The position numbers and the translations under genes were made by a program. From NCBI GenBank assembly GCA_964187785.1, contig OZ076412.1, positions 65,906,001 through 65,970,000 of the forward strand: a stretch of 64,000 bases of DNA, in the 5' to 3' direction. Numbering within the stretch: position 1 is the first letter of the stretch; each line of letters begins with the position of its first letter. Under the pieces are notes generated by a model, which ran no database searches, had not been told where the DNA came from, and saw nothing but the letters and a program-made list of their open reading frames with translations. Shown here piece after piece: positions 1-60,239 of this stretch. Source of the stretch: Amphiscolops sp. MND2022. Taxonomy: Eukaryota.

Positions 1-2
1 CG

Positions 3-3000
3 GCAGAACAAAAAACGCGACCCACGCTGACGCTATCGCAACTAAAAGAGGAATTATGCAGAAACGTAAAATATACTATCGCAGCGCGACCGCTCCCACA
101 TTTCACGAGAGAAGACGAAACGAAGCTGGCCCCAATACAGAAAGTCAAAACCGTTTCTCCGGTGCCGGTAGCCATTAACGTAGACGGTGTAGATATGAAA
201 TTTGACGCTATCGTAGTCTTAGAAGGTCACTTCCCTCAGGGATTGTACTTGGGCCGCCAGGAGTTGCGATGTTATAACATCGGAGTGCAAGATGCCCAGG
301 GGGAGGCTCGCATTGACGAACGAGCATCCCTGGTGGTTGCCTTTGGCAACACGATCCAGGAACCAATACCCTTGTACGGGATGATTGACACCGGTTCCGG
401 TGTCTCCATTCTCTCCCTCAAGGCCTATCAAAAGATTGCATCACCCCACGCCTTGAGCCTCCTACCATATGACATCCAACTGTATGCCGCCAATGGTAAA
501 ACCATCAACACCATCGGAATTGCCGAAAATGTTAGCTTCCAGTTGGGCGGACATACCCTTCGAACCAATTTCATAGTCATTGCCGATCACCTAGGTGCCG
601 AGGACTTCTTACTTGGCAGGAACTTCTTGCGCACTTACAACGTTCTCATGGACCTGACGGCCATGAGGGTCACCATACGAGACCCCAAAGCGCCACGCCA
701 CTTCAAACCCGTCCATGAGGTAAGTGACCATGAGCCATCCCTAGTGATATCCACCGAAAGAGTAGTCCTAGGCCCTTATGAGCGCAAACTGGTGCGAGCC
801 CAAGTTATTTCTCAAAAGCACAACGAATACCTTTTCCGAAACGTAATGATTCGCCCCCAGGGGGTATATAAACGATCCCCCTTTGTTTCAGAAGATACAT
901 TGACGTCTGTTGGAGATGAAGGCATTGTCTTCATAGCCGTACGAAACACTACCCCCTCTGAAAACGTAACCATTCAAACCAAAACTGTCCTCGGTAAGGC
1001 AGAAACTACAAACTTTGTGTTGCAACCTGTGGCTGCCGATACGGCAACCGAAATTGATAAACCTTTGTTTGAACAAGTTAATAGAGTTTATACCGATGAG
1101 TGGTTAAACGAAACGAGTTCCGAATATAGTTCCTTTGCTCAAAATTTTTTGTCCTCTACTGAGATATCTGAAGAAGGATTGTCGGAAAGCGAGAGGCGTG
1201 CTCAGACTGACCCACAGTTACTGAAACCTATACCAGGTCCAGACCTCTCTTCTGTCCTTTCTTCATGGGGGGAGGGAGCGAGAGATCAACTAGCAAGCGT
1301 CCTGAGCGAGTACGATGATCTTTTTATGAAACATAAAGCTGACATAGGGAGATGCAAAATAGCCAAACATCGTATAGAACTAGAGCTGGAAGCTATCCCG
1401 CATAGAGAAGGCGCTCGGCGCATGTCCCCAGATAAGGCAGCAAAGGCTAATCAAGAGGTGCGGAATTTGCTGGCCCTTGGCCTAATTCAACCCTCCTATT
1501 CACCGTGGGCAAGCGGAATAGTCATGGTCAAAAAGAAAACAGGCGAACTTCGCTTCTGCTGTGACTTCCGACCGCTCAACGACGTAACGGTCAAGGACGC
1601 GTTCCCATTGCCCAGGATTGATGAAAGTCTATCCCGGATAGGCAATGCGAAAATTTTCACAAGTATTGACCTAGCGTGGGCCTTCTGGCAGATACCGCTA
1701 AAGAAGCGCGATAGAAGGAAAACAGCATTTGCCTGCGAACTGGGCTTGTTCGAATGGCGGCGCATGCCCTTTGGGCTATGCAATGCATCCGCCACATTTC
1801 AGCGCTCCATTACACGAGCCCTGCAACGGATCCAGCAACGACACGGGAGTGTCGTCATGGCTTACATTGACGACATAGTCATCGCCACGGAAACCATAGA
1901 AGACCACATCGTACGAATCAAGGAAGTATTCGAGTGTCTCCGAGAGGCTGGATTCAAAATGCGTGCCGAGAAATGTGATTTCATGCGCACGGAGACAAAG
2001 TACCTGGGGCGAGTGGTGTCCTCGGAAGGCATCAGACCAGACCCCGAAGCAATAGTCAAAATCCAAGAATGGATGCCCCCGAGAAACAGAGAGGAGCTTC
2101 AGAGCTTCCTAGGGTTCGCAAACTATTACCGGGACTTTGTACCGTTTCATGCAGCCAAGGTGCAACCCCTGCAGGAGTTACTCAAGAAGAGTCAGCATTT
2201 CCACTGGGAAATAAAACACCAAGAGGCCTTCGATGCAGTAAAGGAGGCACTAGCGAATGCGACCGCCTTGGCAGCCCCAAATGAAGACGGACGGTTCGTG
2301 CTCGATACCGATGCTAGTGCGGTAGCGATAGCTGGAATCCTGCACCAGGAACAAGAACACAATGGGAAAACTATTTTACGGCCAATAGTCTTCGGGAGCA
2401 AGTCCCTGACAAAAACGCAACTGAACTATGGAGCACCCAAGTTGGAAATGTACGCAGTATTTTACTTCATAGAGAAATTCCATTCGTATCTCGCAGGCCG
2501 AGAGTTCACGCTCCGCGTGGACAACCAGGCCCTGTCGTGGCTCAAAACGTACTCCATGGACCAAGCCATGATAGGTCGCTGGATAGCCCGTCTGGATCAA
2601 TATAACTTCAAAACGATCCACCGACCTCGCACACAGCATCGAAACGTGGACGGCCTCAGCAAACGGACCAACGACTATGTGCACCGAGAGAAAATCCTTG
2701 AGAAGTTACCGGAAGTGAGTGAAGGATTCAACTTCATGACCAAAGAAGACTATGAAGCACTTCCCACCGTGCCATACTTTGACAAACACGGACGCCCAAT
2801 ACCAAACCATCCAGAGCTCCCGCCGGAAGCTCGAGCCCAACTACCACTGCTGTATATCTTGGGAAAAAGGCCCAAAACGAGCTTGCAAGAACCCCCAGTG
2901 AATGATGCCCCGTGGTACCCCCAAATACAGTGGGAAGCGACACCCACCACAGATGAGGATCACCGACCGAGTCACATCCTCAGCATCACGACCGAAGTGC

Positions 3001-6000
3001 CACCGGCACGCCTAGACACTGGAGAACCTGATCCTGTGCTTGAAGGGATGCCACCCGAATGCCGAAGGCAAGCCCACGCCCTTAGAACAGTCGGAACAGA
3101 GCTGCACGAACACATTCTGACTATACGTGGCCTCAAGGACCTGCACCTAGCACAAAATAGGGACGTGCACCTCCTAGCGCTTAGGAAACTCATGAACGGC
3201 GAACCACTAGAAGACACAATGTTCCCCGAAGACGTGCAGGACTTCGCGCGACGCTACTTCCATCAAAAGAAAGACCTGCTCTTCCTGAACCCAGACGACA
3301 TCCTCTGCGTCAACTACGTTCCGCAACAACGTGCGCTGCACGTGCGACCGTGCATGATAGTCATGCCACAACTATACCAACACGAGATTCTGTATAGGGC
3401 ACACGACGAATCGGGACATCAGGGCGTAGGGAAGGTGCTAGCAAGAGTACAAGAGCGACACACCTGGCCGGGCATCAAGCGTGACATAGTCAATCACATC
3501 AAGCACTGCTTAACCTGCCAGCAGACTAAACACCCCGCCGGGAACCCCTGCTACCCCTTGCAGAACATTAACAGCAGCAATTTCAATGACCTAGTACAAT
3601 TCGACCACCTCAAACTATGCAAGACCGAATCGGGAAACACCGGTCTCTTGGTAATGATAGACCACTTCACGAAATTCGCCGAAGCTGTCCCGTGTGCCCA
3701 CGACGAAAATGATGCTCAAACCACAGCAAAGATCATCCTTAATAAATGGTTCGCCAGGCACAGCACTCCAGCACGCATGCAGTCCGACAATGCCACGAAT
3801 TTCACAGCTGAAATCGCACAAGAGCTAATGAAGGCTTCGCAAGTCACTAAAGTGACATCCACACCAGCGCATCCCCGAGGAAATGGACTCGTGGAAAGGC
3901 AGAACCGAACGTTACTCACACTGCTCAGAGTCTACACTTCGCGACGAATGCAGGATTGGGATGAGCACGTTGATGGAATCCTCGGTGCGTACAATTCAAC
4001 TAGACACGCAACCACGGGATTCTCTCCCTATATGCTCCAACATGGAGCCGAAAAATCCATTCCCTTGTCGTTCATCTACCCAGAATTTGTTGCGCGAGGA
4101 TTCGACTCCAAAGAGGAATTCGTAGAGCACCTTCTAGCCAGACAACAGGAAATCCATGAACTCGTCAGAAGAAATACACACCAAGCACAGCTACGGCAAA
4201 AGCTGAAGTTTGACCGCCACCTGAAGGCCAAAGCGCACGCCGTAGGCGATGCGGTGTGGGTATTCTGCCATATCATACCCAAAGGTGGCACCCGCAAGCT
4301 GATTCGCGCATGGCGTGGACCCCACAAGGTGACTGACGTGTTGCAGGGCGGACGATTATATGTGTTAGACACTGGCCAAAAGGTCCATTACGAAAGATTA
4401 AAAAAGCACGTGCCTGCCCCTTGGGACTGGGCCGCACACCAGCCCTTTGGGCCGGATCAAAACGTAGCCATCATTGCCGATCCGTACGTAGAAGAAAGCA
4501 ATGAGGAGATAGCGTCCGACATCTCTCAAGACTCTTTTCTACCGGAACAACTTCCGGAAGCATCGTTCGAAATGGAACCAACAGGATCGATTCCACCTCG
4601 TACCATTCAGACTCGTACCCAAACGGCACTCGAGCAAGGAATACCCCGAAGAAGATTCAGTCACTTCGGATACCCCTCTGACTCAGATTCCGAAAGAGAA
4701 GAAAATGAGCCGCCGATCCAGAGCCCACCACCGCCAGTAGTGTTCCCCGACTTGGACGACCTAGAACCACTGTACTCCGACCAGGAGGAAATTCAGCCAG
4801 CCGTACCTACAAGTCTGATACCATCACCCTCAGGGACCTCGGCCCCACTACTATCCAATCCGTCCCTGACGGATACCCTGAGTAACTTTCCCTTGTTTGG
4901 CCCCCAATTGGAGGACCCAATCGACCCGATAGAAATTAAACCAAAGTCAGGAACTGAAGACGAAGAAGAGATAACCTATCACAGTCCAAGCCATTGCTCA
5001 ACACAACCCGATACCACGAATCGCAGAGGACGGCCTCGAGGCCGACCACCAGGTCGAGGACGACCCCGCGCCATACCATCCAGTAGAACCACGACATCGT
5101 CGCGAACCCAAACCGCACGATCCAGAAGAGGCCCTAGGACAAGAATGAGCACTCGTGCACCCCCTCGAAGGCTAGACCGAGCAATGACTCTGCCAGAAAT
5201 ACCCGAAAGCCAACAACCACCGGAGGTCCAGAATTCAGAACCGAGACCATCATCGCAAACATCACGATATCAACTGCGAGCTAATAGAGCACCACGATAC
5301 AAGTGTGGAACCTGTGGTTCCCGCAACTGTAGTTGCGTCAAGCATCTGACTCGCGATTCACCGGACAACCGATTGGCCCGGGGAGCGGTAGTCCCTGCCA
5401 GGGATCTCCTGATAGCCAGGACACATTGTCACCCACAACATGAGATCTTAACCGTACAAGCCCAGCGAGAAAAAGTGGAGACACCCCCGCTAGTACACCA
5501 TTTGATCATCACGGTAGAAAAAACTTTCACTAGTGTGGAACGGGAAGTGATACCACCGCTGGAAGAAACACTCATAGCAATGCACGCGACATCTCCCTCC
5601 GACTGCCCAACTTACCGATTCAAGGAATGGACACCACCCCATCGAGGCGGTCTAGAATTCACCCTACATGCCATCATACCGCCCTTGCCACCCTCGATGA
5701 CGTTCGGCGAGCTAGCGAAAGAGGATAGTAGCACGGAGATGATTCGCTGTATCACTGCACACCAACTGTGGGAGAAATATCGCATTGCCTCCCCGCCGGG
5801 AGACATATACCAGCCCACCAATGGATGGTGGCTACTCGTCACCTCTCTAGACGCAACGACATTGGTATCCCCCACAACTCTATTAATGTGCTTAGAAAGC
5901 TTGCGTACTGTAACAGAACCCGAGAACACGCTCTGTTTCCACATGGCCGACATTTATCGTGGCAAGTTCCTAAGCCAACATTGGCTACAATTAATAGCGG

Positions 6001-6740
6001 TCATCTTCTGCCGACAGGCGAAGATACACTTCTTGGATCGACAATCTTATACACCGGAAAAACCCGTCACAGTTAGCGAAGCACTCTCGATAGTACACGA
6101 TTGGTCATCTACCAACATGGGAGATAGACCGCTACGCCGAACCGTCTGGGAAGACCGAAAAGCAATCTTGCAGCATTTAGCACCCCAACCCACTGATGAT
6201 CAGAGCAATACCACCGGCAAATGGCTCATAACCCAGCCCAAAACCAGACCGAATTACCTACCTTGGATAACTTATGACAATACAGATATCCTGCAGGCAC
6301 CTGGCACTGTGATACTATGCTGCCCTGCGGATTTGCTCTCTTACTCTGCCACGATCCGTTACGTTATTCGCGAATACGGTCAAGAAAACATATTTCGCCT
6401 AAGACCGTCAGTTGGCACCGCAATTCGCTTAGTCCGCTCGCCAACTGCACCCTGGAATAACGAAATCTTCCTTCTATGTACCAGAGCATCGAACAAGCAT
6501 CCACTCTTACATGAAGTACTCCATGCGTGTTTGACAAATTTGATAACCCAGCTCCATCGAAACCACATTACCAGAATCCACTTGCCCATCTATGATCCCG
6601 AGCGATCGATGAACCTCCTACCAGCCTGGTACGCCACGCTACGCGACCACTTTGCAGACCACAATATTGCAATAATTTTGCACGATCGCGTCTATGTCAC
6701 GATAGCATCGGTTACCTCAGCCAATTTTGGCGGTAGTTAA
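3..6740 (+). CDS. pol: Gypsy Pol polyprotein, 5'-partial (2245 aa visible), with long C-terminal extension
   Basis: The frame is open from nt 3, so the track's start at 162 is an internal GTG. Protease IDTG (D at 387), RT YIDD (1863-1874), RNase H LDTDAS...EMYAV...DNQAL, integrase HDESGH...CLTC, FDH/SDN/VER and WRGPH (GPY/F) motifs. No stops. Confidence 0.95.
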   Translation, partial: AEQKTRPTLTLSQLKEELCRNVKYTIAARPLPHFTREDETKLAPIQKVKTVSPVPVAINVDGVDMKFDAIVVLEGHFPQGLYLGRQELRCYNIGVQDAQGEARIDERASLVVAFGNTIQEPIPLYGMIDTGSGVSILSLKAYQKIASPHALSLLPYDIQLYAANGKTINTIGIAENVSFQLGGHTLRTNFIVIADHLGAEDFLLGRNFLRTYNVLMDLTAMRVTIRDPKAPRHFKPVHEVSDHEPSLVISTERVVLGPYERKLVRAQVISQKHNEYLFRNVMIRPQGVYKRSPFVSEDTLTSVGDEGIVFIAVRNTTPSENVTIQTKTVLGKAETTNFVLQPVAADTATEIDKPLFEQVNRVYTDEWLNETSSEYSSFAQNFLSSTEISEEGLSESERRAQTDPQLLKPIPGPDLSSVLSSWGEGARDQLASVLSEYDDLFMKHKADIGRCKIAKHRIELELEAIPHREGARRMSPDKAAKANQEVRNLLALGLIQPSYSPWASGIVMVKKKTGELRFCCDFRPLNDVTVKDAFPLPRIDESLSRIGNAKIFTSIDLAWAFWQIPLKKRDRRKTAFACELGLFEWRRMPFGLCNASATFQRSITRALQRIQQRHGSVVMAYIDDIVIATETIEDHIVRIKEVFECLREAGFKMRAEKCDFMRTETKYLGRVVSSEGIRPDPEAIVKIQEWMPPRNREELQSFLGFANYYRDFVPFHAAKVQPLQELLKKSQHFHWEIKHQEAFDAVKEALANATALAAPNEDGRFVLDTDASAVAIAGILHQEQEHNGKTILRPIVFGSKSLTKTQLNYGAPKLEMYAVFYFIEKFHSYLAGREFTLRVDNQALSWLKTYSMDQAMIGRWIARLDQYNFKTIHRPRTQHRNVDGLSKRTNDYVHREKILEKLPEVSEGFNFMTKEDYEALPTVPYFDKHGRPIPNHPELPPEARAQLPLLYILGKRPKTSLQEPPVNDAPWYPQIQWEATPTTDEDHRPSHILSITTEVPPARLDTGEPDPVLEGMPPECRRQAHALRTVGTELHEHILTIRGLKDLHLAQNRDVHLLALRKLMNGEPLEDTMFPEDVQDFARRYFHQKKDLLFLNPDDILCVNYVPQQRALHVRPCMIVMPQLYQHEILYRAHDESGHQGVGKVLARVQERHTWPGIKRDIVNHIKHCLTCQQTKHPAGNPCYPLQNINSSNFNDLVQFDHLKLCKTESGNTGLLVMIDHFTKFAEAVPCAHDENDAQTTAKIILNKWFARHSTPARMQSDNATNFTAEIAQELMKASQVTKVTSTPAHPRGNGLVERQNRTLLTLLRVYTSRRMQDWDEHVDGILGAYNSTRHATTGFSPYMLQHGAEKSIPLSFIYPEFVARGFDSKEEFVEHLLARQQEIHELVRRNTHQAQLRQKLKFDRHLKAKAHAVGDAVWVFCHIIPKGGTRKLIRAWRGPHKVTDVLQGGRLYVLDTGQKVHYERLKKHVPAPWDWAAHQPFGPDQNVAIIADPYVEESNEEIASDISQDSFLPEQLPEASFEMEPTGSIPPRTIQTRTQTALEQGIPRRRFSHFGYPSDSDSEREENEPPIQSPPPPVVFPDLDDLEPLYSDQEEIQPAVPTSLIPSPSGTSAPLLSNPSLTDTLSNFPLFGPQLEDPIDPIEIKPKSGTEDEEEITYHSPSHCSTQPDTTNRRGRPRGRPPGRGRPRAIPSSRTTTSSRTQTARSRRGPRTRMSTRAPPRRLDRAMTLPEIPESQQPPEVQNSEPRPSSQTSRYQLRANRAPRYKCGTCGSRNCSCVKHLTRDSPDNRLARGAVVPARDLLIARTHCHPQHEILTVQAQREKVETPPLVHHLIITVEKTFTSVEREVIPPLEETLIAMHATSPSDCPTYRFKEWTPPHRGGLEFTLHAIIPPLPPSMTFGELAKEDSSTEMIRCITAHQLWEKYRIASPPGDIYQPTNGWWLLVTSLDATTLVSPTTLLMCLESLRTVTEPENTLCFHMADIYRGKFLSQHWLQLIAVIFCRQAKIHFLDRQSYTPEKPVTVSEALSIVHDWSSTNMGDRPLRRTVWEDRKAILQHLAPQPTDDQSNTTGKWLITQPKTRPNYLPWITYDNTDILQAPGTVILCCPADLLSYSATIRYVIREYGQENIFRLRPSVGTAIRLVRSPTAPWNNEIFLLCTRASNKHPLLHEVLHACLTNLITQLHRNHITRIHLPIYDPERSMNLLPAWYATLRDHFADHNIAIILHDRVYVTIASVTSANFGGS

Positions 6741-7071
6741 GAACACGTCTCGCTCTCTTCTTGGCAGATCAGGCCACTGGCCTTTTGCATTGCCTTTCGT
6801 AATTTTGAAGCGCCTTAAAATTTTAACAAAGCCGCGCCGATAAGCGCAAATTTTAGTAATAATCACTAGAAACTTTTTAACCTCGTATTTGTGTGTTCGT
6901 CCTAAAAAGTTTGACTGCCCACCCGTTTATGTAATGTTTTATCTCCAACTGTGACTTGTTTTTCAGTTTTGTCCTGTTGCCTCGCCTCTGCGCGGCCCCC
7001 CTACTTATCACGCCAAATCAGTCTTGCCATCACAATCTTCGGTGCTAAATATTCCTTTATCATCGTTTCCA

Positions 7072-10000
7072 ATGGACCCATCTGCGCGACACCGCCTGCC
7101 TACACCCCAGAACGCTGCGCGTGCCCAACCATCCATAAGGAACGATCCACCTCCAATGATGAGCGAAATAGATGGTCGAGTCGACCAACTAGCTCTTGTC
7201 CAAGACACTCTACTAAACGGAGTGACACCCACAATGATCGCTGGCTTTGCCATGATCATCGCCCAAACCCAAGCCCAGGCAGAGTACCCTGATGTTAGCT
7301 TCACCATCACCAGCCGAGTCGGCCCGATAGAACGCTCTGCCACTTTTCGCGACGGTACCTGGCAAGGGTATGACTTGACCCACAGCCTCATAGATCCTCG
7401 CTCCCACTTAGTCTATGGAGAGCCTACTAGGCCTCCCATGGACCAAGAACGATCACTCCGCATTTCACAATCAGCACTACAGACGCAAACTACGACCCCG
7501 TTGCCCTCACCGCACCCGGTGCAATTCAGCTGCACACTGCCAATCATGCCACCCCCAGTGCTAACACCGCCCATGCCCCTGGCTTCGGAAGGCATTCGAT
7601 TACTCACCACCCCATCTTCTACCTTCATGCCTCCATCTACCTTTCAGGGGGGAGGGGTGCAAGTAGACAATACAACAAGTGCTGCCCTGAGCGAAGAACA
7701 GCCCAGGAGAACGGTGACGTTCAAGGACTCATATGAAGAATTAACTCAAACGTCCTCCAGAACCGAATCACAAGTCTCGGAACCTCTACAAGTCTCAGAA
7801 CCGGCCAGTCTAGTAGGCTTCCAAATGGACCCACAATTCCGAGAACGTCAGCGAGAACAACAAAAGGCTGAAAGTAAGGCGGCCAACACTGTGGTAGACC
7901 TCCGGGAGAAAATTAAAGCTGGAAAGCGAGCCAGAGAGGCAACCACGCAAAGTAGACAATCGAGCTCGACCAGTATCTCGCAACCCACGTCTACCTCACC
8001 CACACAACCAGAAATAAGGAGACCTAGAATAACGCACGAACTCCTAACACATACAGAAAAACGGCAGCTGGATATCACTGCACGCGACGCACTGCGTCTC
8101 CAGCGGGAAATACCAACCACAACGTCACCAGAAGACCCTCTACGACAGAAATTCGAGATCGCTACGGGAACTGGGGACCTCGCCACAAGGCAGAAAATAG
8201 AGAAAGCCACAGTGGGAGTACTCTACAATCGCCCCGTCAAGAAACCCGTGTTTACTCGAGACGGATGCCCCCCATGGTTTAACCGCATGCGAGCAGAACT
8301 GGAGAGAGTAAACTCATCATACATGCGTGTTCCTAACAACTTCCTCCGACAGCGCCCTGGCCGCTTCGACGAAGACCGCTTGCGAACTAAAAACTATGCG
8401 AGGGACCCCATTACAATCCTGCCCATGGGAAAGGACCTTTTACAGAAAACCAGAATAGCCTTCTTCGTCGACTCGACGATGAAGTCTTCATTCAACTCCC
8501 ACAATACCCTCATGGACGTCAGAATACTGAACATGCCCTGTACAACACTGAACGAAATGGCAGAGGTGACCGATAAAATATTCACCCAAGCGGGAACAGA
8601 GACTATCCCACTACCTCCGTTGTTGGTATATTCGAATGTGATAGACCACCTCGCTCTGCGAGGGACCCTGGAATTCTTCCGGCCAGACCATGAAAGGTTT
8701 ACCGAGGGGTTCATCACCGACGAAGTTACCAACTACGTGGAGACGATGGCGAATATTGCCCAAGCTATGCGCAGAAGGAAAGCTACCACTGGAACGGTAT
8801 TTATGTCACCTCCAGGCTACGTGCACCTTCCCCGGACCCTTCAGCAATTCTTGTACCTAATAATGGAGGCAGCGTACGCAAGGGATCTGGCTTTCTACAT
8901 TGTGGCCCCTAATTTACGCATCAGCAATAATAGCTGGCGCCCCTGTGAAGCCTCATACCCAGCCTTCATTGCTGAAGTCTCAAAGGCCCTTCAATCATAC
9001 GTCGGTTACCGCGGCAATTCCCAAATGGTGGCAGATGAAGCAACAGCATTCGATTATGGGATGGAAATGGCTCGTCGATCATTGAACGAGCGTGGAGACC
9101 GAATCGTGAATGATCCAAATGAAAGTGAACGCAATAACCTGGTGGATAACCTCTGGTTTGAACGCCGGGACGAATCGACTATAGACGAGAAAACGCATGA
9201 GCCCAAGTTCCACAAGGAACTCACGAGTCTGATGAAGGAAACCGAAACGATTCAAAGTGATAGAAAGAATTCCTCTATCTTCCCTATAGCACAAATATCA
9301 TTGGACGCGGAACCTGGGCAAAGATCACCCACATTAGCCATGTTGTTGATACTAGCTCAAGATATTGTACGAAGAAATATTCAAGAGCCGACACACACGT
9401 ACCAAACATGGCACGATCAACTACGAGAACCTCTGGGCCAAGTCGCGGACCGACTAGGCATAACATTTCCCGTATTTCTCCACAATATCTCTCCCTTCTG
9501 GCTTCCTTCCCTGGTACAGGCCGAGTACGGCCTGGATGAGCAGCGAATGCGACTATACATGGAGGCCATGGAAAGAGCGACCGTTAGTGAAGTGCTAGCG
9601 TATCTGATGGCCGTGGGGTTGACCATGATGTACCGAGGACCGTCAGCCCTCATACAAAAGTTCGTGCTCAACAAGGGAGGCTCAGCCCTGTTCAGCTATC
9701 TAGTCTTTTCGCAGAATCAAAGAAGTTGGATATCTGCGCTCATTGAAACTCTGGACCCAGCGGGTTCCTTAAAGTTAAAAGCGCAACTAAACTTAAACAT
9801 TCAAGCACTTCTAGTGTGGATTTACTCCACCTGGGTCAATGTCTCTGGCATTATGCATCCTCTGGATGAGTGCCCAGCTATTAACCGAGACCCCAATCAG
9901 CTTCCAGGGTTCCTGTTCCCTACACAAATTGCAACGTTGATGCTCGTGGAGACAGAGGACCTGATACCCCTCATTGCTCCTGTGATCTGGCCTATCTTCG

Positions 10001-10272
10001 GCGCAGTTATGGCCCTGCGCTATCCAACGCAGGCCCTGCGAGTGGCAGCGGTGAGCCCATCCCTCTCGATTCTACACTTCGTGACCTCTAATGGGCCCTT
10101 TCAGGGTCCCACCTATCAATCAGTGATACACAGCTTTGCCAACTTGCGACCTCCCATGGCATACACCGTAATCAAAGACCGCCAACAAGTGGAGCACAAC
10201 TATCTTACGTTGATCAAGGCGCGAGCACGCAGCTCGCTCCCTTTGCCAATGGAAATCCACCCGGTAGTTTAG
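7072..10272 (+). CDS. Retrotransposon accessory ORF2 (1066 aa from first ATG) with SGNH/GDSL-hydrolase-like domain
   Basis: Long stop-free ORF between pol and PPT. FFVDS (Ser at 8473), MPCTT, SNVIDH and SWRPCEASY resemble SGNH blocks I, II, III and V. Pro/Ser/Thr-rich N-terminus, no signal peptide. Confidence 0.75.
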   Translation: MDPSARHRLPTPQNAARAQPSIRNDPPPMMSEIDGRVDQLALVQDTLLNGVTPTMIAGFAMIIAQTQAQAEYPDVSFTITSRVGPIERSATFRDGTWQGYDLTHSLIDPRSHLVYGEPTRPPMDQERSLRISQSALQTQTTTPLPSPHPVQFSCTLPIMPPPVLTPPMPLASEGIRLLTTPSSTFMPPSTFQGGGVQVDNTTSAALSEEQPRRTVTFKDSYEELTQTSSRTESQVSEPLQVSEPASLVGFQMDPQFRERQREQQKAESKAANTVVDLREKIKAGKRAREATTQSRQSSSTSISQPTSTSPTQPEIRRPRITHELLTHTEKRQLDITARDALRLQREIPTTTSPEDPLRQKFEIATGTGDLATRQKIEKATVGVLYNRPVKKPVFTRDGCPPWFNRMRAELERVNSSYMRVPNNFLRQRPGRFDEDRLRTKNYARDPITILPMGKDLLQKTRIAFFVDSTMKSSFNSHNTLMDVRILNMPCTTLNEMAEVTDKIFTQAGTETIPLPPLLVYSNVIDHLALRGTLEFFRPDHERFTEGFITDEVTNYVETMANIAQAMRRRKATTGTVFMSPPGYVHLPRTLQQFLYLIMEAAYARDLAFYIVAPNLRISNNSWRPCEASYPAFIAEVSKALQSYVGYRGNSQMVADEATAFDYGMEMARRSLNERGDRIVNDPNESERNNLVDNLWFERRDESTIDEKTHEPKFHKELTSLMKETETIQSDRKNSSIFPIAQISLDAEPGQRSPTLAMLLILAQDIVRRNIQEPTHTYQTWHDQLREPLGQVADRLGITFPVFLHNISPFWLPSLVQAEYGLDEQRMRLYMEAMERATVSEVLAYLMAVGLTMMYRGPSALIQKFVLNKGGSALFSYLVFSQNQRSWISALIETLDPAGSLKLKAQLNLNIQALLVWIYSTWVNVSGIMHPLDECPAINRDPNQLPGFLFPTQIATLMLVETEDLIPLIAPVIWPIFGAVMALRYPTQALRVAAVSPSLSILHFVTSNGPFQGPTYQSVIHSFANLRPPMAYTVIKDRQQVEHNYLTLIKARARSSLPLPMEIHPVV

Positions 10273-11157
10273 CTACATACCCCCCTCAATCCAAATAATG
10301 GAGCAGTGGCGACGTTTGACGGGTGGGACGTGCCAATTGTCCTGCGTATCTTGAGAGCAATTATCCAAAGATTGGGTGGTCGTAGAAAAGGAGAAGAACC
10401 TACTAGGTTATTATATCCCTATGCGTGTGACACTTCCAGAGTATATTGTGCAAGAACAGAACCCCGTGAGCATACCGCCAGAATCTTAAATACCATTACG
10501 TGTTGGGCCCAGCCAGAACTCGTGGACCTCGCTATACACCAGACCTTCCAACAGCTGCCAACAACCATTCCAACAGTAGCAAAAGAACCAAGCAGGAAAG
10601 ATTTGCCCGTGAATACTGACGTTCCCAGCAACCCGCGTATGGCGCTAGAGATATTCGTACGTCTGCATGGTCTCCAGCGAGAACGCACTCGAGCTGTGGG
10701 CGAAGAATACGCTAGGGGAATACGAACGTTCAAACAACTATTCACCCAATATGGTCACCAAGAATTAGCGGACGGCCTGCCGAACTTGGAGTCAATCGAA
10801 GCCATCCCAGGGATCAGCGATTTGAGCGAAGCTGCCTCTGGCAGCTCTCGCACCGTCCTTCCCACACCCCACATCATTCAAGACACCGATGAATTATTGG
10901 TGGAAGGGGTACAAGATGATGTGCCAAGCGTCATGCCACCATCAGAGGAACCTATGACTGACAACAACTTCACGCTCTCTGATGCCACTACTCCTGTAAG
11001 AGACGAAGTGGAGACCAATATCTCGAACATGGAGGCAGCGGACATAGAGTCAGAGCTCAACAACTTACTGACCATAGATGAAGAATACCAAAATACGGTG
11101 AACGCCATGGGCAGCACCTCCATGCAAGAAGCCCCACAGAACCAGCTGTTGGAGTAA
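10273..11157 (+). CDS. ORF3, in frame with ORF2 beyond a single TAG (readthrough extension or nonsense-split C-terminus of ORF2)
   Basis: The same frame continues CTA CAT ACC... directly after TAG 10270-10272 with no stop until 11157. First in-frame ATG only at 10639. Confidence 0.65.
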   Translation, partial: LHTPLNPNNGAVATFDGWDVPIVLRILRAIIQRLGGRRKGEEPTRLLYPYACDTSRVYCARTEPREHTARILNTITCWAQPELVDLAIHQTFQQLPTTIPTVAKEPSRKDLPVNTDVPSNPRMALEIFVRLHGLQRERTRAVGEEYARGIRTFKQLFTQYGHQELADGLPNLESIEAIPGISDLSEAASGSSRTVLPTPHIIQDTDELLVEGVQDDVPSVMPPSEEPMTDNNFTLSDATTPVRDEVETNISNMEAADIESELNNLLTIDEEYQNTVNAMGSTSMQEAPQNQLLE

Positions 11158-11732
11158 GGGAGTCCTCTGGACCCCCAAGACTGTTAGAACACAATCGAGC
11201 ATAAAAGACCTTATCATCAAGGTACTGATGCCAACTCTTGATTTTAGTTGTGCTACACCATCTTACTGGTGCTGAAAACTTTCAGTGCAATAAACCTTGA
11301 TTTCTGAGTTTTGTTTGATGTATATTTTACTATGCTACCAATGCAACAATGCAATATAGCTACATCCTCTGGGCAGGTCCCGGTTCGGTGCCCTCCCGTT
11401 TTGATTTGAATTTAAAACTTCTACTAAGCCCAAAAGTTGTTGTTACTCACTTGGCCGCGCAGGGGCCCAATTTTAAAGAAAGAAATTTTAACTTGAACTG
11501 AGTGATTAGTGAAAAAACCTTTTTTTAAAAAAAAATCCGACTGTATAGTTTTTAACCTAAAAATCAGTGCTTTTTGAATTTGATGGCTTTGGAGTGCTAA
11601 ACATGCAGTAGCGAAACGAGAGGAATAGTAATGTGAAATCAACATAATCTTGATGTAAGACCTTTCCTGTAAATCTCAGAGTACCCTTTGGGTGCGAGCA
11701 TCCTCTCGTTTGCCGAGGACGACAAACTACGG

Positions 11733-11743
11733 CCCGGGGAGGA
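11733..11743 (+). promoter_or_regulatory. Polypurine tract (plus-strand primer)
   Basis: cccGGGGAGGA immediately 5' of the LTR start TGTAACG. Confidence 0.75.
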
Positions 11744-12461
11744 TGTAACGTCCACCAGTCAACACCAAATTTTCGATGAAAAATTCGATCAAGAACCAAA
11801 AAATGTGCGAATCAAAATGGCCGACCTGGCAGGTCCTTAAAGCCCATAAAATGAAAGAAGAGAGCACGTGAACAAGAGGAACGATAGGAGATAATGAAGA
11901 GAAGAGGCAAAACAACTGATGACATGAAGATCCACACGGGACAGAATACGACGAACGCTACCCGGTGCTATGTCATCCCTGAGAAAGCAGAACCATGCTA
12001 GAATGGCGTGACTGGATCCCCGAAAATCTACAAACAGTAACTGTGTTTTCACTTGGGGCTTATCCCCTTTTGTTTTGTTAATTTATTATAATGCATTTTG
12101 TTATTTTCCCCATGTCTGACCTTCTAGGTCGGCATTTCATGCCCATAACTGTCGAAATGACATTTTTCGAATAAACACTCTTTTGGACCTCGGAAGTATG
12201 TAGGAGATGGCAGGAATACACTAAAGACCTTAGGATACGTTTTTACAGGCTTGTGGGGCGTGTCCGGACTTTGAGAGTGCCGGCACGTCGCCTCGGAGCT
12301 CTAACTAGAGGAGCCTCCTTAGACGTTAGAAAAGTCCCCCATGGAGACCATTTTGGGATCAAAAACTAGTGTCTAGGTATGTAGTAAGACAACGGTCTCC
12401 TGTTTAAGCATCCTAGGCATTGTCCCTCTTCCTAGATGTGCGCCGCTAGCCGGACGTTACA
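11744..12461 (+). repeat. 3' long terminal repeat, 718 bp
   Basis: Starts TGTAACGTCC and ends GGACGTTACA (perfect 10-bp inverted termini); AATAAA at 12170-12175; follows the PPT. The second LTR is not in the window. Confidence 0.85.
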
Positions 12462-24570: not shown

Positions 24571-27500
24571 CTACAGATAGAACAGTGTATCGGCCAGGCC
24601 GATATTTGGTTCTGTATTTGCCAGATTGTCTCCAGCCAGAGCAGCCAGCTTGTGTGCATACTGGCACACGGAGGGCACTCGAATAGCTCCGGTCCAGTTA
24701 AAGTACATATGACATAGGTGGAACGCCAATTCCATCAGACGACCGTTGTCTTTGCGGAAGGGGGTCTCGTCGAACAGCACGTTGAAGTGAGTGGGTGTCA
24801 CAGTTCCCTGTCTGGACGAAACAGGCGACAGGAAGAAGTCGTACCTATTCGCCTTGGTCAGCGTGTCGTACACCACAGTACCTAGAAAAAGATGAGAATT
24901 GAGACATTGAACGTGAAATATGTGGAAATATATGAGTTGAATGTGAGTAACTGTAAAACTGATACGTGAAAGTGCACTACTATGTATGACGTTGTGAAAA
25001 TTTTACATGCGGCATCGGAAGCGAAATCATTTTAAGTGGAATTTAATCAATTTTGCACGTTTAAAGACATGTCTGTGGAATCTAAGGGGTTACACGCACA
25101 GAATTGTGTTTGTAGAAATTTAGCTTGTCTATGCACTGTAATGATGAACTAGTTTCCAAACCATAATGTTTTGAACATCTTTTGAAAAAAGTTCTTCGAG
25201 TTAGTCGAACATCTTTTGAAAAAAGCATATCTAGCTTATATTTCAGAAAAATCGATAAAACTTGCTGCATGTTAAGGACAAGTCACTCCGCTTCGCTTTT
25301 GCGTTAACCCTAAATGGACGATTGGGACTATTTCGTGCCAATGAGTTTGCGCAAACTTCTAAAGGCACTGGCTGAACGTATGGTAAAGAAAACTCTTGAA
25401 TATGATTTTCAGACGATATTACATATTGCACGCATCTTCAATAATTATTGATTTGATGTCTCTGAAATGGAGACCGAGACCTTATATGAGCAGACTCGTA
25501 GCCGATTTTGTGATCTGAAGATAGCAATACCAAATGACTAAACAAGTACCAACCAGGCATGGGATTTTGGAGACCGTCGCGGCCTCGCGAGAAGAAGCGC
25601 TGGGATATTCGCTTGGTCACGATGACGTAACAGAGCTTGGCAGGGCAGCCCATTTCCGACAACACCTGTCGGGTGGCCTCCACTTCAGTGTTTTGCACGC
25701 GCTGCAGTTGGCCCTCGCCCACTCCGTCCCGGAACATGACGATGTACTGTGGGAAGACCTTGTTGTATTGCTGGTACTTCGTGAGCGCCGAGGTGACTGC
25801 AGTTTTCAACACATGGACCTCCTCTTCATTGTTAGTGAATGCCCGAGAGTGGTATCGGGACAGAGTTTCATTCACAGAGCTGACGAAGCCCACTGCGGAC
25901 CTGCGGCGACTGTTCATACCAGCGTGGTACACATCCATGCCAAAAACTTGCAGTCCCGGGAGTTTGAAGTCGGTGATCCAGGGTTCGCCACCCAGCTTCG
26001 CATTGATCTGCATGACCAATTTGCTGACCACGCTCATGAGTCCTAAAGAGAAGAATCTCGATAATTAATAAGATTGTCAATTTCTGATCAATTCAAATTA
26101 TTTATCAATCATTCGGAACAAATCCGGGAATAACATTTCACCATTTTCCAAAGAGATATTCTAATTATTAAGGTCACAATTGATAATTTACATAAAACAC
26201 GGAGACAGATTAAAATTACGCCTCGTATTGGTCGAAACATGAAAAAAGAGGTATGGCATCTTTCATAAGAATCGAACTGTCTTTTCATCAGAGATAAAAC
26301 CGAAATTGAATTAACCTGCTGGCTTGGACAACGTCTTATTCAGGACACACTGACTCGGCACAGGGTTTTCGATGTAGCACACTTTCTTTATTGCGTTGTA
26401 GCTAAAACCAATTAACTCTCATTAGATGAAGTTATGTCCAATTTGACCAATGACTTAACCATCCGTTAAAAAACGGTTGAAAAGTTCAGATTATCAATCC
26501 ATCGGTTACACCTTTTCGGTAGAAATATACTTAAAGTCAAGGCGATAATACAGTGCTTATAAACAAGTTTTTTCAACTTATCACTGATAATCGGTAGCCA
26601 ATGTTACCTACAAAAGCTTTTGCATTATACTTTTGTACAAGATTTCATGATAAACAATGTTAAGTGAAAACACGATCAAAGTGTCACAATTCAGTATTGC
26701 TTATTTCTGTGATGAGTTTCGAAGGGAAAATTGCATAATACTTTCGTCACTAATTATTTGGTTGAACAAATCAATCCAATGATGAATCCGTTATTTAGGA
26801 CTGCGCTAATGTTGAAAACAGAGACAAGATTGAGATATCGGGTTTTTTCATTGAGGCTGAAACTACAATCGGAAAATTGGTACATTGCGATGAGTAATAA
26901 ACGAATCAAAATAAAAGTGGGCCGAATCGCTTCGATGTAACTTACCGATCGGCCCGGTTGTCCGGTAAGACGAAGACGCAGAGTTTCAAAGGCATTCCCC
27001 TGGTAACTGCGGCCGTCATCTCCCTCTTTATGGCAGCGGTCCATTCGTCGGACCGAGGAGAGTTGATGAGCACCGCTTGGCAGCTGGAGAACTCCACTCC
27101 GAAGCCTCGCCCCGCTTGAATCATCTTGTCGTTCAGGGTGCCAGCAATTTGTTCATTCTGTCGAACGTAGAACACGGCGTAACTGCTCACGGCGATTGGA
27201 CACCTGAACCTGCAGTTCTTCAGAACTTGACCAAAGTCAGCCGCATTTTTATTGTAATCCACAGGTTCACGGAATACAATGTTGGGTGCGTTCAATCTGC
27301 GTCCTAAAAAGTCCAGCTTGAATTGAAAAGATGACCGAAAGTGCTAATACTTTTCCCATTCAGCACATTTGTGTTCCATTTAGCATTCCAAACATTGTAG
27401 ATGGCACCCAATATTCTGTGTGGCTTGAAAATAGCTCTCCGTTTTTCTGTGTCTTAACCTATTTTCAACAGATCAATAGGAGCTTCAATTTCCGGTCGAA

Positions 27501-30186
27501 CTCATAACTGATGTTTCATTGAAAAAACTTGTATATGCGTTTTCAATGGTGGCCTACTGTGTTACTAGAGTGGGACAGTAACTTAGCAAACAGTTGCTCA
27601 GTTATTGAGAAAAGGCCAATTTTTTGAAATAAAATTTTTTGCAAATTTCTACTCTTTTCCAGTTACTTTGTTGCCGGTGGCTCGGAAAAAACTATATTGA
27701 CATAAATAACAATTCACCCCAGATAGTCCAATAGATCGTCGATAAGAAAGACAAATTTTCGTTTTTCTATGCTTTTTGCGTTTCGTAATTTTTCATTGAT
27801 TGCGAAAAAATTGCTGTCCTCATTTGAGGACGAAATCACTGTCGAGGTTATATCCGTCTCACAAGTTCAACACGTCGCATCATAACTCCTACATTTCACT
27901 GAATTTGAGAGCCAACAAGGATTTTGAGAATGCTAGTTTTTTTGATAATTGAAAAACCCGTTTTCCAAAATCGTGAGTTCAATTAAAGCTATTGTTAGTC
28001 TAACTTCAATGACAGGTATTCAATGAAAATCAAGTATTTGCAATAGAAAACTTGATACTTTTCCAAGTTTTCGAAGCTTGATTGGAAAGTTTTGTAGTCG
28101 AAACCAATTTTGTAACTGCGCATATACACACGAAATCCCAGGTTCGAGAATTTTATTTATTGCTGCTTAACTAAAGCGCTAATGAAATATTGTGGAACAA
28201 TTCAACACAGCCGCTAACAGGGTCAACTAACCATGGAATGCAACCAGCTCGGGGTTAAACCTCATTTTCCAGAATTGGAAGTTGGCTTTAATCTCTGGGT
28301 TACTGTTGAACCTGTTGGTCAGCTCACGCAGATTCTTTGCCCGCGTTTCTGGCGGGTGTTTGGTGAACTCTCCCATGGCTTTGGTGAAGCGGAAGTCGGC
28401 TCGTTGTTCGTCCGAGATTCCAGTGACGTGGCACAGTTCAGGAATGAGCAGGATAGGTTGTTCCATGCCTCGGCGACGGTCGCGTTCCTTGGGCTGTGAG
28501 ATGAGCAATGGCTGCTGGTTATCTCTGATCTCGATACCGTACATCTCCTGGTAGTACCTGAAAGAGAGGGCAATCAAGTAACGCACAAAAGGGTCAAAAC
28601 TGACCTATATGTTTCTCACCTTTTTAAAAGGACAGTAACTTCAAATTCAGTTTATTCATAACATTCAAGTTTTTAAAACTTATTACAGAGGTGCATTTTC
28701 AAATATTCGACATTAGAATAGGCACATATGGCGCAAAAGACGTCGCATGCACTTTTCGACGGATCCGTAAGTTACCTCGTCAATTCGTGGAGAATTTCGC
28801 ATCGAAAATGAAAAAAAAACCTCGGGAATCGAAAAAACTTACTCGAAAAATACTTCAAAAATTCGATCTTGGTCCATACTCTTGAGAAATCGTTGAAATG
28901 AATAGAAACGAATATTTTGTCACTTACGTCTTGAATGAGATCTTCTGACCCTTCTTTTCGAACTCGTCCAGAGGATTGCCACTGAAATTTATATCGTCAA
29001 CTCGATGACGCTTTTGATTGTACGGCGTGAAGACAATACGGCCGACAATTTTGTCTATTGCCGCTTTTTGAAAATGCTCGGGATTTCCTTGCGATTGTTG
29101 GTGAATCTCCAGCAATTCCTGGTAAACTGTTCGCTTGGCAGCCAACTTGAACTGGTTATCAGCAACTAACATAAGTCCACCTTCGTACACATTGACAGAA
29201 GTTGAGTACCCAGGCCACAACTCAAACCCGTTGTTCAAGTTTATTTTGGAATTTTCGTTCGTATCAAACATATGACGGCCAAACTGGATGTAATTCAACT
29301 TCTCCATGCCCTTCTTCATCAACACTCCTGCAATTCTCAGATTCTCGTTCGAATTGGCGTAGATATTAGCCCTGTGAGTACAGGTGACATGAATGGTTTC
29401 ACCTCTGGGGGTAGTGTGGTCGAATTCCACCTTGCCGTTTTCCTCGGAAATCAGATTACCAGTGAAGAGGGTAGTGCCGTCAAACAATACGTGTTTGCCT
29501 CCCAAATGCCGTTCGGCGTTATTCATGATAATAGCATGACGAATTTTTCGACCATCCAAATGAGGATTGAACTCACAATGGTATTGGAACCCCGTAGGCG
29601 TGCCCATGTCCGCCTGAGGATACAGAGAAATAGCGTTGGCCACCAACTCTACGTTTTGTCCGCGAATGCTCTGTACATTGATTCTGAAGTCGTCAAAATG
29701 ACCAGACGACAAATTCTCTTCCTCGTATCTGTTGCGTCTCTGTCTCGGCCCATCACCTCTTTCGTCAACGCGCATTGAGCCCAATCTATCAGATAAGCCA
29801 CTTGCGTCGCCGTTATTCCCATTTCTACCCGTTCCGGTACTGACTGCAGCAGCGCCTCTGTTTCTAGCGCTGACGTCAGCAGTTGCCCCGCCTTCAGGCT
29901 GTGGAACCATCCCACGACCACGGCCCCGACCTGCGCTGTTGTCAAACTGTCCGTTGGAGGCTCCATTTCCCACAGCAGGTGCCTGTTGTTCCACAGAGGG
30001 TTGAGCGACAGCAGCAGGTCCCGCAGACTGACCTCGACCTCTTCCGCGACCTCTGGCTGGTCCTGCTGATGGAGGTGCTGCTTGGACGGGGACAGGAGCA
30101 GGTGCTGCCACCGCTTGGGTAGGATCTTCGGGAGCTGGCACTGAAGCTCCTCTTCCGCGTCCTCTTCCTCTTGCTCGTCCTGTCAT
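24571..30186 (-). CDS. piwi: PIWI-clade Argonaute, 942 aa; exons 28928-30186, 28232-28557, 26946-27303, 26316-26401, 25554-26042, 24571-24881
   Basis: All junctions GT-AG and phase-consistent (2829 nt). N-terminal RG repeats, PAZ (YYQEMYGIEI...LLIPELC), MID YNAIKK...PSQCV, GMDVYH, RDGV, CQYAHKLA, C-terminal LFYL. Confidence 0.95.
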
Positions 30187-31012
30187 TGTCCAACAGAATG
30201 TTACTCAATCTACTTTTTGAAACAATTGATCTGAAAATAGGTCAACGGTCATCAAAAAACTTACAGGTAATAAAAGATAGGATGTTCTTTCATTCGATAT
30301 GAACTATTTACAAAAAAAAAGGTTAAGGCTGTATAAGCGATATTGCAACATTTTAAGCCAAATTTCCCCTCTGAACTACGCTACAAAATAGCAATAAATA
30401 AGTCCTCACAGCAATCAATAAACGACTTCGTTTGCTCTGATTAAAACCTGTTACACCGAAACAAGTCGGTAACGGCATAAGTCGACGCCCGGTTAAGGCT
30501 CAAAAAACGCAAAGTACTTCAAATAAGGGAATCTCATTGGGCTAGGAAAAGCTTCTTTCTAACTTCAGAAATGCTAAATGGTTATTTTAATGAAGTCTCA
30601 GAGGGCTTTGTGTTTGAAAGTCTTTTCCTTTCAATGAAGGAGTCAGAAACAGTTTGGTGAAATGAAGAATTTTTGAAAGGTCACACAGAACCGAAGATCA
30701 ACCCACATATTGCTTGAAACCCAAAAAGGTATCTTGAAACATGAAAGCGAGGACACAAAATGAATGGGAGAACCCTTGAATAACTTTCGCATTTGACACG
30801 TTTATTCTCACCTCGACCGAATTTTAAAAAAAAACAATAATTTTTAAAAAGCAGGGTTATCCAAGAAAAATGTCGAAATTGCCCTGAGACCCAAGAACGA
30901 AATACAAGTGCGTTAGTTCATAACTAGCATTCAGAGCCTAGTAAAAAATCAGAATTTCTTCACATGTTAAAAGAATCTAGATTAAGGGGAAAACAAGGGG
31001 AAAAGAAGTTGA

Positions 31013-34000
31013 TCACGTGTTTCCAGCGCTACCGTCCATTTCTTCAAGTTTTGATTGAATTTCAGTTGGAACAGTGAGATTTTGGAGATTATCACATTCG
31101 GGATCATCGTCTCCAATCAAAATTTGGATCACACTATGAATTTCATGAGTCAATTGTTCATTCCCGTTCTTTTCGATGGTGGCTTTGTCCAGTTCCCTGA
31201 GTATTAAATAAACGTTGAATTGTCGCAATGAGTTCCTTCCGTTCTGAGTAGCGCATAGTTTGTGCAGAGACTGAATTAAAGGTATTCGAATATCATTGGA
31301 TAACTCTCGCACTTTGTCACCGCCAAGGTACTGAAGGTCAATGGGCAACGTTTCATTTTCCTCTTCCGTGAATTCCTCTGGTCCAGCTAAAATTTAAACA
31401 TCAAATCATCATTCAATGAAATATTCAGTGCCTCATGTATATCAGGTATGAGGAAAAGGCTGATTAAATGCAAAATTTAATTTTTACAGTGCCTCACAAA
31501 TTGTAACAAACCGAAAACGGCAAACAATTGTGAAAATATCACTTTGCTAGAATATTTTTAAATTAATATTAAGCTTAATTTATCAACCAGGTTTACACTG
31601 TCTTATTCGAAATTAGTTTGTTGCCGATCGTCAAACCGAAAGTAAAACTAGCAGCAGAATATTGATCACACCTATTGTTACAAATTCGTGTGCAACTTTT
31701 CTGATAACATTTTTCAAGTTTTGAGTTGCAAATAACAATCAAGAGCGATTTATCAACTCAGTTTTTGAAAGAAAACATCAATTTTCCCGTTTACATGAAA
31801 ACAAACCCAAAATAGGTCAAAATCTCAAGGTCAAAATAATGGATTATCTAAAACAGGTTACTCCTCAGGAAACATTGCAGATAAAGTGGTATCGGTTAGT
31901 CCCATGATAATCACAAGGCTTCGAAAACAGGCTGCATTGGACGTCCCGCTTCCAAAACCAAGACGTCCTTTAATTTTGACGGACACTGACGAGAGGAAAA
32001 GGTTTAGACTGTCCAGGTTTAGACTGTCTTATTCGAAATTAGTTTGTTGCCGATCGTCAAACCGGAAGTAAAACTAGCAGCAGAATATTGATCACACCTA
32101 TTGTTACAAATTCGTGTGCAACTTTTCTGATAACATTTTTCAAGTTTTGAGTTGCAAATAACAATCAAGAGCGATTTATCAACTCAGTTTCTGAAAGAAA
32201 ACATCAATTGTCCCGTTTACATGAAAACAAACCCAAAATAGGTCAAAATCTAAAGGTCAAAATAATGGATTATCTAAAACAGGTTACTCCTCAGGAAACA
32301 TTGCAGATAAAGTGGTATCGGTTAGTCCCATGATAATCACAAGGCTTCGAAAACAGGCTGCATTGGACGTCCCGTTTCCAAAACCAAGACGTCCTTTAAT
32401 TTTGACGGACACTGACGAGAGGAAAATAGTGCGGGGTATTCACTCAGGAAAAAATATACAGCGACGAGCGCCGGGAAACAGTTAACTGAAACCATTCAAA
32501 AGATGATGTCATCCGCAGAGTTCTGCGCAAAGCTGGTTCAAAGTCAAAAAGAAAAAATCCTCCTCTCCTTGAAACACCGTAAGTTCAGATTGGATTTTGC
32601 TCGAAAATATGAAAGTTGGACGGTCGAAGAATTCAAAAGAGTAGTTTGGTCAGATGAGACAAAAATAGGCCGAATGGACTCTGATGATATGCAATGGACA
32701 TGGGGACGGCCGAAGACAGGCATACAGGATCATCGTGTCCAGGGCACTTGCAAGTATTGTGGAGGGAATCGCATGCTGTGGGGCTGCATGACTTGGCTTG
32801 GAGTTGGTCAGTCCTGTAAAATAGGTGGTAATGTTGCCAGTGCCCTATACTTTGAAATTCCGGAGGACAACTCATTGGGGACAATCGAGCATTACGGATT
32901 GGATCATTCCATTTTTTAACATGATAACGACACAAAACATAGTTCAGGATTGGCACGGGAATGGTTTGCGAGAAATCAAGTTCAACCAATGGAGTGGCCC
33001 CCGCATTCGCCGATTATAAATCCGTTCGACAACCTCTGGTATGCTCTCAAGCAAGCCCTTCAAGCATATTCGGAAGCTCTCAATAGCATTTTCGATCTTT
33101 CGGAAAGCTCACGATGAATGGTTGAATTTGTCCATTGAGACGTGTCAAAACTTATTTTCAAGTATGTCACAGAATTCAAGCAGTTCTCAGAGCAAAGGGT
33201 GGTTGCACGAAGTATTGAGATTCTCTGAAAATAACTCTTCTAGTTGGGTTACTTTTTATTGACTATTTGCCTAAATTAGTTTTTCTACTAACGAATTTGT
33301 AACAATACAATTTGTCATAAAAACTTGCTTTTCACGAATGAATGCCTCTTTTTTGCATATGAGCTCAAAATTGAGTATGCGGTTCTTCAGTTGTTACAAT
33401 AAGAATTTTGTTTTGCGAATCTATTGTTACAATTTCGTGAGGCACTGTTGTCACAAAAAATGAATAGAAGTAAAACAAAATCATAATTACACACAATTCA
33501 GTTCTGGAAATCTGGGATTTATATAAAAATCCGCAAGCTTGTGAAAATTCACTTGAAATCTTTTCCTTGGGAATTCAAAGTTACCACTTCGAGGGAATGA
33601 GACTTCGGTAACAAAAAACCCCATCATGTGCGTTGGAAAGAAACGAAATTGCAGAATTCACGCACCTAGAGGTAGCAATATGGAAGATACTACTGTGTCA
33701 TCCTTCAGAATCCAGTCGTGAAACTCAGTCTCAAAACAGCAATTTTTGATCATGTTCGCGATCCCCTGTCGGCATATTGCGCTCTCATGCCCAATAAAAG
33801 GTAAAAGTTTATCAAAAATCAGTCCATTGTTGGCAGTAAACAACTTCCTCACTTCGGATATTTGGCGTAAGTTTCCGAACAAATGACTCAAATGATGGTA
33901 AAAGCATTTATTCGATGTGAATAAAGTTACAAGTTTGTTCAAAAGATTATTCGTTTCAATGAACTTGAAAATATGCAATGCCCCAAGCTTCTCACGAGTG

Positions 34001-34356
34001 ATGTTTTCCAGGATAGAGCAAACGTGATGAACATTTGTTTCACTCTCGATGTCAAAGTTAGTCATGAATTTCTCGGTGAATTCGTGATTTTTATCAAGCG
34101 TGATAAATAACTGGACAGCTGATGGAACTTGTAAACAGTTAGTGACGGTTTTCAAAGCATTTTGTTTCACTTCGTGATCTTCATGGCCACAAAACTTGAG
34201 TAAGGCCCTATAGAGACCGTCATTGTTAAGAATGACGGATAAACCGTCTTGGGAACCTGACAGTCCGCAAAAGTATTCGCAGGTGTGTTTGATAATTCTG
34301 ACGTCATCGCTTTTCAGCAGGTCTATCAATTCTTCAAGTTCCGGCGATGTCGACAT
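31013..34356 (-). CDS. HGH1: HGH1 (FAM203) homolog, eEF2 chaperone, 354 aa; exons 33666-34356 and 31013-31386
   Basis: NCCFETEFHDWIL...LLPL|AGPEEF...LPIDLQYL...YLILREL...LIGDD motifs; GT-AG junction in phase 1; 1065 nt total. Confidence 0.9.
31487..33447 (+). mobile_element. Tc1-family DNA transposon relic in the HGH1 intron
   Basis: ~24-bp TIRs CAGTGCCTCAC(G)AAATTGTAACAA with TA on the left. Transposase fragments WSDETK, HDNDTKH and WPPHSPIINPFDNLW with stops and frameshifts. Internal 414-bp direct duplication. Confidence 0.9.
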
Positions 34357-34666
34357 ACAAATATCTGTAATTCATAACAAAAAATTTTACATTACAAAAG
34401 GTAAAAGCAGTTAGGGGTTCATGTGGTTAAAAATATGCTTAATAGATGATGGTTCAAATAAACTTTTGAATTTAATCAAATGAACACTTTGAATTTAATA
34501 AAACCAAAGGGAAAAGCTAATAAACACGGAAATTATTATTATTTACAACGAGCACAAAGTGAGTGGTTTTTGAGGATTATGCTGTATTAATTTGAAGGAG
34601 ATACATTTTTATAAATGCAAAGAGAAACTATTGTCAAAATTATATCACATTTACTGAGCTAAAAAA

Positions 34667-60190: not shown

Positions 60191-60239
60191 TCTAGAAAAC
60201 TAAAAACGTTCATTCTGGAAGCGAAAAAATTATGTGGGA

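Follow-up and report, generated by a model that had tools for sequence, protein, structure and literature searches.

SGNH esterases have been captured repeatedly by unrelated retroelements. In Gypsy elements of bdelloid rotifers, GDSL/SGNH ORF3s with intact catalytic residues occupy the env position, and membrane penetration is proposed for them in PMC5408684, an idea repeated in PMC6431247. The ZfL2-1 esterase is described as active, with a pI of 10.8, and as binding liposomes mainly through surface charge; the same account counts Oskar and the PAF-AH homologs of insects among SGNH proteins that are inactive (PMC3905857), and OSK is treated elsewhere as a captured GDSL-like domain (PMC7250577). 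PMC4977317 makes mention of macro ORFs in endogenous retroviruses of fish. The rotifer ORF3s are the closest precedent for the locus considered below, a precedent overlooked by an earlier reading of this DNA from its letters alone (hereafter the sequence-only reading).

Bases 1-12461 of the window (the whole stretch of DNA analysed, 64,000 nt) constitute the 3′ portion of a Ty3/Gypsy LTR retrotransposon, with domains in the order PR-RT-RNase H-IN, a polypurine tract and a TG...CA LTR (Table 1). The 5′ end of the pol ORF lies upstream of the window, and gag and the 5′ LTR precede base 1; within the 64,000 nt a second LTR copy is absent. Pol matches RVT_1, RT_RNaseH, Integrase_H2C2, rve and Asp_protease_2 in Pfam, and its top PDB match is Ty3 Gag-Pol (E=1.8e-103). 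The accessory ORF is located between pol and the polypurine tract, which is the env position. Several other segments of pol deserve mention. Upstream of the true protease (nt ~366-695), a protease-like stretch lacking DTG (150-330) gave no match in a PDB search; we take its resemblance to suggest a tandem protease fold. The region separating protease from RT includes a beta-rich segment (~730-1030), likewise with no match in a PDB search, which is in our view reminiscent of the degenerate dUTPase-like domain found in certain Gypsy elements. The pol linker ends in a YQLR..R.PRYKCGTCG..C.C motif (5280-5340), retained in the relatives P0368 and P0392 at 39% identity, which is possibly a small zinc-binding motif or a cleavage landmark.

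Table 1. Features of the element, in window coordinates
Feature	Position	Strand	Basis or property
pol ORF: protease, RT, RNase H, integrase, disordered linker, accessory tail	3..6740	+	2245 aa open
First macro-like repeat of the pol tail, candidate, degenerate	5673..6020	+	profile-profile match to second repeat
TARG1/OARD1-like macrodomain at end of pol, candidate, glycine-rich loop replaced	6213..6725	+	profile A3 match
Candidate splice acceptor TTTTTCAG, 105 nt upstream of the ATG of the ORF and matching its phase	6959..6966	+	inferred
Env-position accessory gene, about 1361 codons, one in-frame stop in this copy	7072..11157	+	
Small conserved N-terminal module, aa 31-125	7162..7446	+	identity 33% to P0026, 44-45% to P0010/P0011
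P/S/T/Q-rich linker including a charged segment, aa 126-320	7447..8031	+	47% P/S/T/Q, poorly conserved
SGNH-fold pseudo-hydrolase domain, aa 451-670	8422..9081	+	fold, register, conservation
All-helical domain, aa ~754-913	9331..9810	+	block pLDDT 78-96
Most conserved block, aa 916-1065	9817..10266	+	43% identity to P0026; model pLDDT <50
Premature in-frame stop in this copy	10270..10272	+	28/39 relatives align across
Acidic C-terminal tail, poorly conserved, aa 1241-1361	10792..11154	+	25 D/E vs 2 K/R
Polypurine tract	11736..11743	+	purine run abutting LTR
3′ LTR, 718 bp, TG...CA, 10-bp terminal inverted repeat, AATAAA at 12170	11744..12461	+	

The surrounding DNA holds further genes and mobile elements. 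About 13 kb from the element, pieces of a Piwi-family gene (RG-rich N-terminus, PAZ and Piwi) occupy 25438-30204 on the minus strand and indicate an animal-type context. A DUF383 (HGH1-like) coding segment (33658-34371, minus strand), a Tc1-like transposase fragment (32416-32919, plus strand) and a broken non-LTR element with endonuclease and RT (55126-58003, plus strand) are also present. Families of dispersed direct and inverted repeats at 35000-36900, 45700-49070 and 53000-60400 are probably non-autonomous DNA transposons.

The final ~430 residues of pol (5451-6737) form a conserved module with 138 relatives, many of them predicted from their own Met with lengths of 430-445 aa; in P0279, P0368 and P0392 the module is in frame with the linker or the integrase end. 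The two halves of the tail are alike: their profile-profile score is 37.9, whereas 30 column shuffles reached no more than 15.0. For the second half, profile A3 weakly matched OARD1/C6orf130 chains only (5/5, E=0.003-0.004) and the ESM Atlas gave a Macro lead at 0.88; Pfam gave no match, and the first repeat had no direct match in the databases. The glycine-rich loop is important for TARG1 catalysis, and the TARG1/OARD1-like repeat is probably degenerate. A tail made of tandem degenerate macrodomains is thus a lead. Of the 116 contigs (told apart by size) in the match list of the accessory ORF, 29 recur among the 119 of the tail list, and the identities of ORF and tail matches on shared contigs are correlated (Spearman 0.54), both figures being given with no formal null; they are consistent with joint travel of the accessory gene and the pol tail.

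The accessory gene is longer than was first supposed. The sequence-only reading delimited it as the ORF 7072-10272 (1066 aa), of which the start is kept. Beyond the stop the same frame continues for 294 further codons, and relatives are longer: P0003 has 1364 aa (94% identity), P0004 1363, P0008 1277, P0010 1429, P0011 1407 and P0026 1541 (31% identity). The segment around the stop matches 39 relatives; 28 align through it, 6 end near it and 5 end earlier. Five of the 6 alignments ending near the stop leave 19-330 residues remaining, and P0006 itself ends there. Since relatives are longer and most alignments cross the stop, the gene extends to 11157, and the stop at the original end marks this copy as broken. 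ORFs of full length (1277-1541 aa) are present in subfamilies at 28-58% identity, and the family is large, with relatives on at least 116 distinct contigs and clusters of up to 342 members (P0003). The domains are more conserved than the linkers, and the whole ORF has been retained over the long term together with the element. In P0005, the C-terminal ~700 residues are duplicated in tandem in a single frame. Upstream of the ATG, TTTTTCAG is the sole acceptor-like site within 6741-7080, and an in-frame FQF(C/N/S)PV peptide spanning it recurs in P0027, P0236 and P0010. The gene would be expressed from its own spliced RNA.

Outside the SGNH part, conservation is uneven. The N-terminal module is more conserved than the adjoining linker, which is probably disordered, and the C-terminal tail is only 21-26% identical to distant relatives. 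The helical domain, searched as part of a 550-residue model, gave no fold match, and the model of aa 694-1243, half of it at low confidence, matched nothing in the PDB. Toward P0026, the block at aa 916-1065 reaches 43% identity versus 27% for the SGNH domain, and many of its sites are invariant among distant relatives; it may carry the real function of the protein. The accessory protein also contains a strongly conserved region of ~310 residues without a detected fold match. The C-terminal third had been described as hydrophobic and helical. The helical domain is indeed modelled, but the gene runs to 11157, so that the hydrophobic block is internal. Only one segment is clearly hydrophobic (aa 964-982, nt 9961-10017, KD 2.2); it lies in the most conserved block and is possibly membrane-spanning.

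Several hallmarks of Env are missing from this anatomy. By hydropathy there is no N-terminal signal peptide from the ATG at 7072, although a leader might yet be supplied by an upstream exon beyond the window; the Rx[KR]R furin site is absent from all four full-length proteins, and the acidic C-terminus has no TM anchor. These results agree with the sequence-only reading, which had seen neither a signal peptide nor a furin site with TM anchor. Within the SGNH part, the fold is not that of a viral fusion protein. This calls for caution in naming any post-pol ORF env.

In the predicted model of aa 451-670, a five-stranded parallel alpha/beta core superposes on structures of the SGNH/GDSL superfamily, among them the ZfL2-1 esterase (4c1b; Foldseek rank 7, E=2.9e-3). 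The sequence blocks were compared with Table 2 of PMC10792757, and the register was projected from the end-points of structural alignments with 12 references, assuming that these are gapless near their ends. The key sites are Asp467-Ser468, Cys490 at the Gly site, Asn522-x-x-Asp525-His526 and Arg623 at the His site. Block I, VDSTM, resembles GDSTM of rhamnogalacturonan acetylesterase. Its Ser468, which the sequence-only reading had correctly singled out in RIAFFVDS (nt 8473), aligns exactly with the nucleophile in 7 of the 12 references and lies 1-4 residues off in 3, the other 2 being uninformative owing to extra N-terminal domains. Block II, MPCTTL, resembles MPGDTT of 1YZF, with Cys in place of the oxyanion Gly (register by motif). 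Arg623 coincides with the catalytic base in 6 of the 12 references and stops 1-4 residues short of it in the remainder.

Conservation was counted over 194 relatives matched by the domain, using in each column only the rows that bear a residue. Gly is found at the block II oxyanion site in 1 of 138 rows, Asp at the catalytic acid site in 2 of 106 and His at the base site in 2 of 107, the last being occupied by Arg in 98 of 107 rows and in all 13 below 40% identity. Ser468 is kept in 110/116 rows and in 6/9 below 40% identity, Asp525 in 129/140 and His526 in 127/139. No further His is shared by a majority of the distant relatives, either in the SGNH domain or downstream. The block III oxyanion position is Ile524 or Asp525, the register being ambiguous by one residue, and Asn occurs there in 0/140 and 2/140 rows, respectively. 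Ile524 is favoured, because Asp525 then equals the structural Asp retained even in Oskar; the conserved Asn522 would most likely stand at the Gly position. Three parts of the active site, the block II oxyanion Gly together with the catalytic Asp and His, have been lost, and the His-to-Arg change is fixed across subfamilies. The absence of the catalytic His and the block V Asp, already noted from the letters, thus extends in these alignments to an old, family-wide loss, deeper than first seen, in which the replacing Arg is itself constrained. Fold, register and conservation across subfamilies to about 27% identity support both earlier contentions, that the protein is not Env and that it is an SGNH pseudo-esterase. 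A non-catalytic SGNH domain is well supported by these comparisons, and since the catalytic His is swapped for a conserved Arg, the domain probably binds rather than cuts. The kept fold, with a new residue fixed at the catalytic site in such divergent subfamilies, argues for selection for binding, not hydrolysis, and the small, well-folded domain can be used for testing the two.

It is tempting to propose an ancient capture of an SGNH hydrolase by a Ty3/Gypsy lineage, which would have turned it into the non-catalytic binding module of a large cytoplasmic accessory protein. The residues of the former active site (Asp467, Ser468, Asn522, Asp525, His526, Arg616 and Arg623) would line a rebuilt pocket that receives a single anionic ligand, for instance an acyl carboxylate, the head of a phospholipid or a phosphate of a nucleotide or RNA. 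The helical and conserved C-terminal blocks would act as a scaffold linking this pocket with either a host factor or the particle of the element. Its role would most likely be intracellular, either in placing or protecting the RNP of the element in the germ line or in blunting a defence of the host, with the degenerate macrodomains of pol acting beside it. The chances of this reading, a cytoplasmic binder of an anionic ligand, are put at about even. Against it, the conserved His526, Asp525 and Ser468 could form another catalytic arrangement, with Ser468 as nucleophile, His526 as base and Arg623 stabilizing an anionic substrate or intermediate in an unusual hydrolase or transferase. The counts for these three residues favour such an enzyme, as does the variation of catalytic sets in some SGNH members (e.g. 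His at the block III oxyanion site of 4H08). It is nevertheless improbable: bulky residues fill the Gly site, 3 of 9 distant rows replace Ser468 (by Thr in the 749-aa P0267), Asp525 corresponds to the structural Asp of block III, and Asp-Ser also has a structural role, as the Asx motif described in PMC10792757. An Oskar-like protein that binds the RNA of the element or RNA of the host germ plasm, and directs the element to germ granules or keeps it clear of piRNA silencing, would account for a pattern of losses that is the same as in OSK, for the conservation of Arg461, Arg616 and Arg623, and for the basic segments upstream of the SGNH domain (25 K+R in aa 321-450). The domain itself has a net charge of zero (18 K+R versus 18 D+E), so that the case for broad RNA binding is no stronger than that for binding to membranes, and we regard this possibility as doubtful.

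The same neutrality, set against the basic LINE esterase, leaves the route to membranes or cell-to-cell spread suggested by the sequence-only reading unsupported. As a substitute for Env, the pseudo-esterase would bind lipid and, with aa 964-982, bring particles to membranes for exit or passage between cells. The env position, the candidate splice acceptor and the one conserved hydrophobic segment speak for this, as do the liposome binding of ZfL2-1, reported to be independent of the active site (PMC3905857), and the similar idea raised for the rotifer proteins (PMC5408684, PMC6431247). Yet a signal peptide is missing, only 8 Cys occur in 1361 aa, the hydrophobic segment is proline-rich and followed by about 380 residues, and the env-independent spread described in bioRxiv 2025.03.14.642691 relies on short transmembrane proteins; an Env substitute is therefore unlikely. 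Comparably speculative is an accessory kit of two captured enzyme folds turned binders, the tandem TARG1-like macrodomains on Pol and the Arg-pocket SGNH domain with its conserved block of undescribed fold, which together would replace Env. They would either recognize lipid or ADP-ribose marks of the host, so that particles pass from cell to cell or reach the germ line, or jam a host defence. If true, LTR elements would have a means of spreading not described so far. That the gene is a passively carried, decaying fragment of a host gene is largely refuted and highly improbable. The premature stop and the many fragmentary relatives in the databases would fit decay, but the full-length ORFs in divergent subfamilies and the conservation of domains above linkers do not; as to capture of a host fragment, no named or Pfam-labelled cellular protein is among the matches listed (26 and 120 rows). 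Collectively, the feature of the sequence-only reading is partly confirmed: it is real, partly mis-delimited and overstated in function.

Among known systems, the locus is most like Vesta, as described in PMC5408684 (Rodriguez et al. 2017), a Gypsy-type element in which an SGNH gene downstream of pol replaces env. The Vesta ORF3s are given there as about 1.3 kb long, with S, G, N and H intact and no TM or coiled-coil, whereas the present gene spans 4.1 kb, encodes several domains and no longer keeps G, D or H (nor N by the favoured register). The GDSL derivatives of Athena-L Penelope-like elements, also treated in that paper, are likewise retroelement-borne SGNH proteins without catalytic residues, but they belong to a different retroelement class; Vesta and Athena-L sequences are not, by name, among the matches listed for the accessory protein. 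ZfL2-1 ORF1p and its CR1/RTEX/L2 relatives share the SGNH fold in a retroelement accessory protein; ZfL2-1 is, in contrast, a non-LTR element with its esterase upstream of pol, active, strongly basic and liposome-binding. Oskar OSK (5a4a), a host germ-plasm protein, no longer has the Ser and carries Phe in place of the catalytic His; the element domain keeps Ser and has Arg at the His position. A non-env accessory ORF after pol also occurs as the sORF2/FAST-like proteins of MDG1-group elements, described in bioRxiv 2025.03.14.642691 as short transmembrane fusogens with demonstrated cell-to-cell transfer, and dissimilar in size and anatomy. No title or abstract found in the literature describes this family, and supplements, figures or Repbase could hold related entries. 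Position and fold therefore have precedent, and dead SGNH domains are known from Oskar and Athena-L; what appears to be undescribed is a His-to-Arg pocket present throughout the family, an architecture of 1,360 residues that includes the unmatched conserved region, and the adjoining macro-like tandem.
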